Positions 4,008 through 5,459 of a stretch of 64,000 nt of DNA are shown here, piece after piece; positions within the stretch are counted from its first letter, which is position 1; each line of letters begins with the position of its first letter. The position numbers were made by a program, and so were the translations under genes. The stretch spans positions 81,220 through 145,219 of the forward strand of contig CAKPHC010000004.1 of the NCBI GenBank assembly GCA_934155645.1, written 5' to 3'. Under the pieces are notes generated by a model. The model was not told the origin of the DNA. It was given only the letters and a program-made list of their open reading frames with translations, and ran no database searches. The stretch comes from an uncultured Bacilli bacterium (GTDB lineage Bacteria > Bacillota_I > Bacilli_A > RF39 > UBA660).

Positions 4008-4610
4008 ATGAAAGTAAATGGTGATTCTATGACTAATGAAGATAAAATTAAACAGTTTTTAGTTGCTAATCATGGATATATATCTACATCAGATTTTTTA
4101 AAACTAAATATTAGTAAACCATTAATAAAAAAATATGTTGATAAAGGTTTAATTAATAAAGTTTCACATGGTTTATATATTGATAGTAATACATTAGTTG
4201 ATGATGAATATGTTTTTCAAAAAAGATATCCTGATGCTATATATTCATATAAGACAGCATTAAGTATGTTAGGTTTAATTAAAGAATTACCAGGAGAAAT
4301 AGAAATAACTGTTAATAGTAAGAAAAGAGTATTAAGCAATTATAAAGTGCATTATGTATCAGATAAATATTATGATATTGGAATTATTGAAATTAACAAT
4401 ATGTTTAATAATCTAATTAAAATATATAATGCTGAAAGATGTATTTGTGATATGTTGAAAAGTGATGATTTTGATTTAGAATTACAAAATAATATATTAC
4501 ACGATTATTTTAATAGCAGTGATAAAGATATAGATAAATTACTAGAGTATTCTAAAGTATTTAATATATATGAAAAAGTTAGAACTTTGGTAGATTATGC
4601 AGTGAGATAG
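4008..4610 (+). CDS. AbiEi-family wHTH protein (type IV TA antitoxin-like / possible operon regulator)
   Basis: N-terminal wHTH pattern typical of AbiEi (NHGYISTSDFLKLNISKPLIKKYVDKGLINKVSHGLY ... YPDAIYSYKTALSMLGL). It is about 200 aa and ends 12 nt upstream of the Fic gene. Confidence 0.55.
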   Translation: MKVNGDSMTNEDKIKQFLVANHGYISTSDFLKLNISKPLIKKYVDKGLINKVSHGLYIDSNTLVDDEYVFQKRYPDAIYSYKTALSMLGLIKELPGEIEITVNSKKRVLSNYKVHYVSDKYYDIGIIEINNMFNNLIKIYNAERCICDMLKSDDFDLELQNNILHDYFNSSDKDIDKLLEYSKVFNIYEKVRTLVDYAVR

Positions 4611-4622
4611 GAGGTTAATTAA

Positions 4623-5459
4623 ATGAGTGAAAAAGAATTTGATTCAAGTAATGTTGAATATATAGAAGAAACTAAATCAAAAGGCTATTTAAAACAACTT
4701 GAGTGGGATATGGCTATAGGTCTTCAAGAAGTAGATAATTTAAAACCTTCTAAATATTTAGAAAAATTGTTAGGAGAAAATGTTAGTGGTAATTTAACCA
4801 TTAAACAAGTAGAAGAAGAATTAAGAGAATACTACATTGAAAAAGATAAAAAACAAGAATTAAATCATAATGAATTAGAGTGTGATTTTGTATCTACAAG
4901 AATTGTTGAATTATTACAAATTGATAATTTTGAGTTGTCTGTAGATTATTTAAAATATATTCATAAATATTTATTTCAAGATATTTATGAATTTGCCGGT
5001 GAATTTAGAAAAATAGATTTTTCTAAACATGAAAAAATATTGAATAATGATTCAGTGGCTTATGGTGATTGTAAGACATTAAAAGAATCATTAGAATATG
5101 ATATATCATTAGAAAAAGGAAAAAAATATAAAGAAATGAATATAGTTGAAGTTATTAATAATATAACTAAATTTTCTTCTAGCATATGGCAAGTACATCC
5201 TTTTAGAGAAGGAAATACTAGAACAACAGCTCTATTTATTGAAAAATACTTAATTAGTCTAGGCTATAATGTGGATAATACTCTATTTAAGGATAAATCA
5301 GTTTATTTTAGAAATGCGCTAGTAAGAAGTAATTATTTTAATAACTATTTAAATATAAAAGAAGACAGTAGATATTTAGTTAAGTTTTATGAAAATTTAT
5401 TATTGGGTAAAAATAATAATTTACATTCACAAGATTTAATTGTTAAAAAATTGTTTTAG
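4623..5459 (+). CDS. Fic/Doc family protein with non-canonical active-site motif
   Basis: The Fic core motif is HPFREGNTRTTA, where the canonical form is HPFx[DE]GNGRxxR. A GGAGG RBS precedes the start. The gene ends 15 nt before the methyltransferase gene. Confidence 0.8.
   Translation: MSEKEFDSSNVEYIEETKSKGYLKQLEWDMAIGLQEVDNLKPSKYLEKLLGENVSGNLTIKQVEEELREYYIEKDKKQELNHNELECDFVSTRIVELLQIDNFELSVDYLKYIHKYLFQDIYEFAGEFRKIDFSKHEKILNNDSVAYGDCKTLKESLEYDISLEKGKKYKEMNIVEVINNITKFSSSIWQVHPFREGNTRTTALFIEKYLISLGYNVDNTLFKDKSVYFRNALVRSNYFNNYLNIKEDSRYLVKFYENLLLGKNNNLHSQDLIVKKLF

Follow-up and report, generated by a model that had tools for sequence, protein, structure and literature searches.

A 64,000-nucleotide (nt) stretch of DNA from an uncultured Bacilli bacterium (contig CAKPHC010000004.1, positions 81,220 to 145,219; referred to as the window) carries an orphan abiEi gene (4008-4610, + strand), which is directly followed by a fic gene (4623-5459, + strand) and the two genes of a Type IIS restriction-modification (R-M) system. 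The favoured reading of this locus, held with a probability of roughly 0.55, is that of an orphan AbiEi autorepressor over an operon consisting of a self-contained Fic2-type effector and swappable defence cargo. The adjacency of abiEi and fic looks like modular shuffling of known defence parts and not like a dedicated toxin-antitoxin pairing. The parts of the locus are of known kinds, and the Fic motif variant has already been published. No earlier account was found of an AbiEi-headed operon with Fic and swappable cargo, which appears to be undescribed, nor of the repeated loss of abiEii with abiEi retained, nor of the VbhA-like fusion nature of the Fic2/PDC-S72 family.

The abiEi and fic genes and their promoter

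The six-frame open reading frame (ORF) list and the raw sequence gave an ORF of 200 amino acids (aa) at 4008-4610 and one of 278 aa at 4623-5459, both on the + strand. The 12-nt spacer between them (4611-4622) holds the GGAGG ribosome-binding site of fic. A gap of 15 nt lies between the fic stop at 5459 and the ATG of the methyltransferase gene at 5475, and the methyltransferase gene (M) and the endonuclease gene (R) share 11 nt (7399-7409). Judged by these gaps of 12, 15 and -11 nt, co-transcription of abiEi, fic, M and R is likely, and the junctions of the four genes show no conspicuous promoter or terminator signal. A first-pass annotation of the window had listed these genes, both gaps of 12 and 15 nt and the Fic motif HPFREGNTRTTA, and the ORF list and the sequence bore all of them out.

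The product of the first ORF had been called AbiEi-like, and the comparison with known proteins confirmed this. The Pfam model AbiEi_4 scores 24.7 bits, just below its cut-off of 25, the PADLOC AbiEi model spans the full protein (E=1e-54), and the crystal sequence of Streptococcus agalactiae AbiEi (PDB 6Y8Q) aligns over residues 14-196 (E=2.8e-24). Because the alignment with 6Y8Q runs from end to end, the protein is, by homology, a genuine, full-length AbiEi with two domains, an N-terminal winged helix-turn-helix (wHTH) and a C-terminal domain (CTD). The canonical partner is absent, as no AbiEii homologue was found in any frame of the window. Translation of abiEi probably starts at the ATG at 4029 (Met8), which gives a protein of 193 aa. 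The first ATG is missing in one of the compared loci (L027), in which ORFs were called mechanically, many AbiEi homologues have a length of 193-195 aa, and 4002-4028 is kept as a non-coding 5' leader across the loci.

The abiEi gene is intact in all loci examined. In pairwise comparisons with relatives, the ratio of nonsynonymous to synonymous substitution rates (dN/dS) ranges over 0.09-0.42 in abiEi and 0.07-0.39 in fic when all comparisons are taken together; inside the AbiEii-less lineage it is 0.09-0.30 and 0.07-0.14, respectively. By this measure, both are functional genes. The wHTH and the CTD of AbiEi are alike constrained (dN/dS 0.05-0.35), including the comparison with L015, a locus with neither AbiEii nor Fic, in which the CTD is equally constrained. 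As the constraint on AbiEi persists against this locus, its function would be independent of either partner.

The 278-aa product of the second gene is matched by the Pfam Fic model (E=1.7e-12) and by the PADLOC model PDC-S72 (E=1e-79, residues 11-276, model positions 7-271 of 377). An AlphaFold2 model of the protein reached a predicted local distance difference test score of 95. The top structures found for it by Foldseek are class I Fic toxins (Beps, VbhT, EcFicT) at a query-normalised template modelling score of at most 0.55, and no solved structure of the Fic2/PDC-S72 subfamily was among the Foldseek matches. Long members of the family (350-430 aa), which make up about half of it, append a C-terminal winged helix (HTH_24, MarR or Fic-like_C); the window protein is of the short form without it. 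In a phage collection, one unannotated 7.5-kb fragment with a Fic relative was found and no sign of a phage-borne family.

An exhaustive search of 1.84 billion representative proteins yielded 3269 Fic relatives, 301 of them at E<1e-30. Motif statistics were calculated for 140 of the best 150 relatives, taken as representatives at 50% clustering, and gave the subfamily motif H-x-F-x-E-G-N-T-R-T-(T/V/I)-A. The position of the second glycine (position 8) is occupied by threonine in 139 of the 140 representatives and that of the final arginine (position 12) by alanine in 122. In the window, the motif HPFREGNTRTTA (5196-5231, + strand) extends from His192 to Ala203, with Thr199 for the second glycine and Ala203 for the final arginine; the catalytic His192 is kept and is invariant in the family alignment. 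The subfamily signature is invariant in the family alignment A1. Because the two exchanges are shared so widely among the representatives, the deviation is best described as a selected signature of the subfamily and not as decay. The altered motif pointed out in the first-pass annotation is thus real, but it is not new, since Fic2 of Campylobacter fetus already has it (PMC5651007). A Doc-like kinase, which would need a lysine at the position of the second glycine (HxFx(D/N)(A/G)NKR), was considered and rejected, as threonine stands there and the nearest relatives are FicT-type.

The N-terminal part of the Fic protein (residues ~20-76; 4680-4850, + strand) forms a VbhA-like domain. The alignment revealed a family-wide block W28..AIGLQxVD(G/N)LxPS, and the Pfam model VbhA matches 16 of 33 N-domains of the family. 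On a Kurthia plasmid, a 61-aa gene annotated as "antitoxin VbhA family protein" is followed by an in-frame Fic gene with HPYREGNTRAVS, and the window protein aligns colinearly across both plasmid proteins. Because of this colinearity with a split VbhA and Fic(GNTR) gene pair, the window Fic is regarded, from the alignment, as a single-chain VbhA-like/Fic fusion. A profile of the N-domain gave no significant match to PDB sequences; the kinship with VbhA was established by Pfam and the split pair from Kurthia. Leu34 and Asp38 presumably stand where VbhA has its inhibitory serine and glutamate. With the position set in this way, the family reads L34-Q-x-V-D38-(G/N) and does not show the inhibitory helix motif (S/T)xxxE(G/N). 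In that case, both partners of the Glu-Arg inhibitory contact would have changed together.

The strongest promoter candidate ahead of the four genes is TTTACT-17-TATAAT, extended by TG (10 of 12 matches; 3973-4018 including the putative operator, + strand), with the -35 box at 3973-3978 and the -10 box at 3996-4001. The -10 box is bracketed by palindromic half-sites, TTTACT at 3973-3978 and AGTAAA at 4013-4018. This promoter region is invariant in nine aligned loci with different partners, and when 43 distinct regions upstream of AbiEi genes were compared, 31 had TTTAC-N28-40-GTAAA around TGnTATAAT. The palindrome has longer arms of 13-16 bp in canonical AbiEi-AbiEii loci (TTTACTTTTGTTCC / GGTACGAAAGTAAA), and in other lineages the arms change jointly (e.g., TTTACACTTTCTCG / CGAGAAAGTGTA). 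The window keeps well just the outer 6-bp half-sites, and the palindrome in the window alone is not significant. S. agalactiae AbiEi is reportedly autoregulated with such a promoter layout (Hampton et al., 2018, as cited in PMC8562856), and by analogy the palindrome is a putative AbiEi operator. The further argument for TTTACT/AGTAAA as operator from locus L033 was dropped, as the alignment there is too uncertain. The proposal that the wHTH protein controls the operon fits the promoter and its covarying palindrome, but control specific to the R-M genes is not supported, because the cargo varies.

Partners and cargo in related loci

A scan with one genome per species revealed at least 598 genomes with a relative of the window Fic, of which the closest 80 loci, ranked by similarity to the query, were analyzed. 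An AbiEi homologue is located within 6 kb of fic in four of the 80 loci and adjacent to it in just two (L028, L029). Of the other two, L061 has an intact abiEii between abiEi and fic, and in L052 the AbiEi belongs to a nearby AbiE pair. Directly upstream of fic, genes for HsdM (3), serine recombinases (3), RhuM (2), AbiEi (2) and AbiEii (1) were found, and directly downstream genes for MazG-like proteins (4), ResIII (3), D12 methyltransferases (2) and HsdS (2). More than 25 species-level loci, one of which (L033) has the same element backbone, encode a Fic protein with 71-87% identity to that of the window but lack AbiEi. In a neighbour-joining tree without bootstrap, the AbiEi-adjacent Fic proteins form one terminal subclade.

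From the side of AbiEi, metagenomes were scanned with an alignment of AbiEi proteins, and 69 loci could be classified; like the Fic set, this set was capped at 80 loci and ranked by similarity to the query. About half of these (35) have the order AbiEi-AbiEii, several with a split abiEii, and one has AbiEi-AbiEii-Fic. AbiEi is directly followed by Fic in 15 loci, and in three a 97-aa ORF lies between them. The remaining 15 have other genes downstream, including a YhcG/DUF1016 nuclease, HsdM, GmrSD and housekeeping genes. Fic is encoded directly downstream of AbiEi homologues with 93-100%, 76%, 65%, 62% and 59% identity to the window protein. In L015, a homologue with 69% identity precedes a GmrSD-HNH gene and a Type I R-M system, and Fic is absent; in L027, one with 60% identity precedes a frameshifted abiEii and then fic. 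The first-pass annotation had proposed a dedicated pairing of AbiEi with Fic. This claim did not hold up well: in database look-ups each of the two genes was largely found to be widespread without the other, AbiEi being rarely adjacent among the closest Fic loci and AbiEi relatives without Fic existing, and it is further weakened by the antitoxin-type domain that the Fic protein itself bears.

The same element backbone carries abiEi-abiEii-fic in L027 and L061, abiEi-fic in the window, L005-L014, L021, L028, L029 and L114, fic alone in L033, which retains a similar -10 box and the ribosome-binding site junction of fic, and abiEi alone in L015. All four combinations are therefore found on one backbone. 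The AbiEi proteins of L110 and L111 are 91% identical to that of L027, yet these loci have no abiEii, so that abiEii would have been lost there independently of the window lineage. Furthermore, abiEii is split into two ORFs in L027, L122, L125, L127, L131 and L135, in all of which abiEi is intact. The split abiEii is probably a pseudogene, and these loci suggest that the toxin was lost repeatedly and the antitoxin or regulator kept.

The junction between abiEi and fic differs in some loci. In L152 (5593-5886), L153 and L160, an ORF of 97-101 aa without Pfam match lies exactly between the two genes, flanked by the 8-bp repeat GATAGGAG. AbiEi and Fic of these loci are 93% and 92% identical to those of the window, which has the empty site at 4604-4615. 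The second abiEii-less AbiEi-Fic lineage shows a spacer of 66-73 nt with a strong hairpin (AATCGAATTTTTGTGTACACAAATTCGATT) at 5227-5292 in L110 and 5586-5658 in L111, which may be an attenuator or a deletion scar.

The genes behind fic in the window encode a fused double D12-class N6-adenine DNA methyltransferase (5475-7409, + strand) and an AlwI-family Type IIS restriction endonuclease (7399-8955, + strand). The methyltransferase has two Pfam MethyltransfD12 stretches in one protein of 644 aa and matches PADLOC MTase_II (E=1e-127); the endonuclease of 518 aa matches Pfam RE_AlwI (E=4e-39) and PADLOC REase_II (E=1e-148). By its domain content, this is an AlwI-family Type IIS system with a methyltransferase whose two domains fit an asymmetric site, one per strand. 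Behind the same abiEi-fic head, an AlwI-type R-M system, a Type III R-M system, a MazG-like protein with AIPR and an SLFN-type helicase, or a D12 methyltransferase with HNH and DUF8370/8371 were found in different loci. In a separate metagenome sample of 21 loci, the first gene after fic encodes a MazG-like protein in seven, a D12 methyltransferase in six, a Type III protein in one and another protein in seven. The unusual AbiEi-Fic-Type IIS arrangement noted in the first-pass annotation is real and apparently undescribed, but its link to Type IIS is unspecific, as many systems follow fic.

The homology between the variants ends at the stop codon of fic and restarts at the promoter of the HTH_36 gene (TTGAAA-17-TATAAT, 11 of 12 matches; 9006-9034, + strand), which forms the right conserved border of the cargo slot. 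On the left side, the last ~55 nt of fic (5405-5459) are near-invariant at the DNA level in the window, L005, L007, L008, L021, L028, L033 and L114, and the rest of fic in these loci has a synonymous divergence (dS) of ~0.5-0.9. The invariant 3' end of fic is consistent with a left recombination anchor for the exchange of cargo.

Favoured reading and its alternatives

The gene identities, family signatures, co-occurrence counts, modular variants, purifying selection and the conserved palindrome are observations, and repression by AbiEi, co-transcription, the toxicity and role of Fic and the direction of evolution are all steps that we infer, the functional ones from homology and context. Under the favoured reading, the orphan AbiEi would bind the palindrome bracketing its own -10 box, by analogy with S. 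agalactiae AbiEi, and this binding would repress the whole transcript from abiEi to R. The Fic protein, taken as a class-I-type core to which a VbhA-like domain is joined in cis, would most likely be a growth-arresting effector with non-canonical chemistry, and could add to the island a layer of abortive infection or guarding, or one of addiction. As exchangeable cargo, the Type IIS R-M genes would be replaced through recombination, with the 3' end of fic on one side and the HTH_36 promoter on the other. The adjacency of abiEi and fic would have been born by the loss of abiEii from an abiEi-abiEii-fic arrangement.

The closest studied relative of the Fic protein is Fic2 of C. fetus subsp. venerealis (WP_002850956.1), with 44% identity over residues 29-264 (E=7e-57). 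Its motif, HPFREGNTRTIA, was found in a full-text motif search in a single paper (Sprenger et al., 2017, PMC5651007). According to this study, Fic2 curbs the growth of Escherichia coli, lowers the amount of 70S ribosomes and raises that of free subunits, and it is neutralised by Fic1, encoded upstream, and in trans by Fti3. For the comparison, the fic1-fic2 gene pair was taken from a C. fetus plasmid. Like the window protein, Fic2 has the variant motif HPFREGNTRT(I/T)A and an N-terminal AxGLxxVDxLKPS domain, is located on mobile DNA and is tightly coupled downstream of another gene. In contrast to the window, where the partner is AbiEi, its upstream partner is the class II Fic protein Fic1, which binds and neutralises it; furthermore, Fic2 has 306 aa with a C-terminal tail and belongs to a type IV secretion system pathogenicity island or plasmid and not to a defence operon. 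The name "Fic2" used in Fusobacterium is unrelated.

Several of these points weigh against the favoured reading. The C. fetus protein, with the same N-domain, is toxic on its own and is neutralised by Fic1 (PMC5651007), so that a protein antitoxin encoded upstream would have a precedent, by analogy, in the Fic2 family. The gap between abiEi and fic is tight, with 8-12 nt in the window lineage, and in the tree without bootstrap the Fic proteins next to AbiEi group into a single stable terminal clade. Finally, the CTD of AbiEi, which is the antitoxin part in S. agalactiae, is under purifying selection.

The same observations speak for the foremost alternative, a genuine two-gene toxin-antitoxin or abortive infection (Abi) module, which is nevertheless considered unlikely. 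In such a module, Fic would be the toxin and functionally replace AbiEii, and AbiEi would both neutralise it, through direct binding or a type IV/VII-like effect of the AbiEi CTD, and autoregulate the operon. The 12-nt coupling of the genes, the purifying selection on both genes and on the AbiEi CTD, and the need of the toxic homologue Fic2 for an upstream-encoded antitoxin in E. coli (PMC5651007) fit this view. Moreover, the pair persists across AbiEi proteins with 59-100% identity and across two layouts of the element, and abiEii was lost at least twice with abiEi and fic kept. Against it stand the more than 25 species-level loci with a Fic protein 71-87% identical and no AbiEi, L033 on the same backbone among them, and the occurrence of AbiEi with AbiEii, with nucleases or alone. 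The CTD is equally constrained in the Fic-less L015, a 97-aa ORF can sit between the two genes, and the divergence is discordant in L028, where AbiEi is 65% and Fic 91% identical to the window proteins. The Fic protein also has its own VbhA-like domain.

A bolder form of this idea appears somewhat more doubtful. It takes the AbiEi clade as a promiscuous post-translational partner of AbiEii, of Fic2-type proteins and perhaps of nucleases, and abiEi-fic as a new toxin-antitoxin or Abi family, in which Fic would have a non-AMPylation chemistry via Asp38, Thr199 and Ala203 and would fire when the cargo is overcome.

It is improbable that AbiEi and Fic form a sensor-regulator head in which post-translational modification of AbiEi by Fic, or of Fic by AbiEi, upon infection or arrival in a new host frees the cargo from repression. 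The fused C-terminal wHTH in about half of the Fic family, with the short form in the window adjoining a separate wHTH gene, and the position of the pair always directly upstream of variable cargo would suit such a head, but a wHTH gene is missing beside most short-form fic genes, and either AbiEi (L015) or Fic (L033) can head cargo by itself.

Slightly less credible still is a role of AbiEi as classical R-M controller (C) protein, timing methyltransferase against endonuclease specifically in the Type IIS system. A DNA-binding protein does head the R-M operon, with a palindrome at the promoter. However, the same head precedes cargo other than R-M genes, with the MazG-like/AIPR/SLFN-type helicase set in seven of the 21 loci plus others, and since the cargo is not always R-M, a controller specific to it fails. 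Moreover, AbiEi is a wHTH and CTD protein of 193 aa and not a small Xre-type C protein, and the overlapping M and R genes behind fic show no separate C-box-like arrangement. The least probable view, to which very little weight is given, takes abiEi as a leftover of a decayed AbiE system that has no function and whose position beside fic is meaningless. The absence of abiEii in the window and its frequent pseudogenisation in relatives speak for this view; against it, abiEi is intact throughout with dN/dS of 0.05-0.35 over both domains, and its promoter and palindrome are conserved.

Among known systems, AbiE of S. agalactiae and Lactococcus (Dy et al., 2014, PMC3985639), a type IV toxin-antitoxin and Abi system, shares with the window the full-length AbiEi and, presumably, the inverted repeats at the promoter, and the overlapping abiEii gene is still present in close relatives of the window. 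The window differs in that no AbiEii nucleotidyltransferase follows, but Fic and then the R-M genes. The nearest relatives of the Fic core, by solved structure and by sequence, come from the FicTA/VbhTA systems (VbhT-VbhA, EcFicT-FicA), as does the counterpart of the VbhA-like N-domain; unlike in these systems, the antitoxin-like domain is fused in cis in the window Fic, and the motif reads GNTR...A instead of GNGR...R. PDC-S72, a single-gene phage-defence candidate of PADLOC, corresponds to the window Fic by its hidden Markov model match, and its family is enriched near R-M, helicase, MazG-like and recombinase genes, whereas the window protein has no C-terminal wHTH as the long members do. 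Regulators of the BrxR/CapW type with a WYL domain (Picton et al., 2022, PMC9122601) resemble AbiEi in that a DNA-binding gene heads variable defence cargo and palindromes lie at its own promoter. They are wHTH-WYL proteins of a family unrelated to the wHTH and CTD protein AbiEi, and the analogy is one of layout only.

A literature search for AbiEi together with Fic gave a paper on mycoplasma toxin-antitoxin systems (PMC8562856), which treats AbiEii/AbiEi and Fic/RelB as separate pairs, as well as Dy et al. (PMC3985639) and a paper on S. thermophilus defence, both of which mention Fic just in passing. Searches on Fic and restriction and on orphan AbiEi regulators gave nothing specific, and the full-text search gave no paper naming PDC-S72.

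If the favoured reading is true, the locus would be a clean natural example of how defence islands are assembled, in which a single autoregulated promoter and a conserved head, made up of an orphan antitoxin-type repressor and a Fic effector, precede a slot for R-M or other defence cassettes. The locus also puts a context on a large Fic subfamily, which is present in at least 598 species, has the motif HxFxEGNTRTxA and a fused VbhA-like domain, and of which the toxic C. fetus Fic2 is the sole studied member. The four variants on one backbone represent a natural genetic series for the question whether AbiEi proteins can serve toxins besides AbiEii, and they could show what Fic genes inside restriction loci do.

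The mobile element and neighbouring features

Upstream of the abiEi promoter, an AT-rich hairpin is located at 3761-3795 (+ strand), an inverted repeat of the form GCACTAAT...ATTAGTGC followed by TATTTTTG, which is also present in L005, L013 and L028. It likely terminates transcription of the 1168-aa ORF upstream, in which case a new transcription unit would begin with abiEi. A scan of the + strand from 3600 to 9300 found no terminator-like site.

Between the upstream cargo slot and the abiEi promoter lies a conserved hairpin-rich element of ~85 nt (3858-3942). It occurs once in the window and once per locus in L001-L029 and L033, in + orientation in the window, L001-L014, L028 and L033 and in - orientation in L015-L026 and L029. 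In L033, it is located upstream of fic without abiEi. The element holds a conserved GGTGT-N4-ACACC palindrome, has fold z-scores of -2.3 and -3.0 and resembles a minus-strand terminator. Its candidate roles are those of a terminator acting in both directions, a site of protein binding or recombination, and a small RNA. The inverted repeats that a simple inverton would have on its two sides were not clearly present, and the flanks too differ between the orientations. A search of the region upstream of abiEi against Rfam gave just a chance-level match to ARRPOF (E=0.32).

The slot upstream of abiEi is variable as well and holds proteins of 1291 aa, 761 aa or 902 and 912 aa, or a Gabija-like pair (OLD/TOPRIM and UvrD). 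In the window it contains a gene at 242-3748 (+ strand) for the C-terminal 1168 aa of a ~1291-aa protein, which is full length in L001. No Pfam, NCBIfam or PADLOC match was found for the 1168-aa protein. Because the slot holds the Gabija-like pair or other large genes in relatives, this uncharacterised gene is a candidate defence gene.

Behind every cargo variant, the element backbone follows with an HTH_36/DnaD-like gene (9256-9582, + strand) and a gene for a large serine recombinase (9992-11581, + strand). In total, the gene set of the island comprises genes for a 110-aa TnpV-like protein, HTH_36 and the 529-aa large serine recombinase, followed by a 283-aa DUF5677-like gene, and by its gene content the island looks like a small Tn4451-like integrative element. 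The G + C content is 19.5-22% in the range of 1-8 kb, compared with ~27% in the rest of the window. The island appears to be inserted in a gene for an Amidase_3/LysM cell-wall hydrolase: a ~97-aa N-terminal fragment of Amidase_3 is found at the left end in relatives and an ORF with LysM repeats (12749-13648) at the right end, beyond which a tRNA-Trp is encoded (13760-13833). The element belongs to uncultured gut Bacilli with a low G + C content and is very common in human and animal gut metagenomes.

The matches of the window to genomes are uncultured gut Bacilli or 'Tenericutes' metagenome-assembled genomes, e.g., Candidatus Coprovivens. A bacterial RNase P RNA of class B was detected at 62590-62927 (+ strand, 273.6 bits), which is consistent with a Bacillota host.

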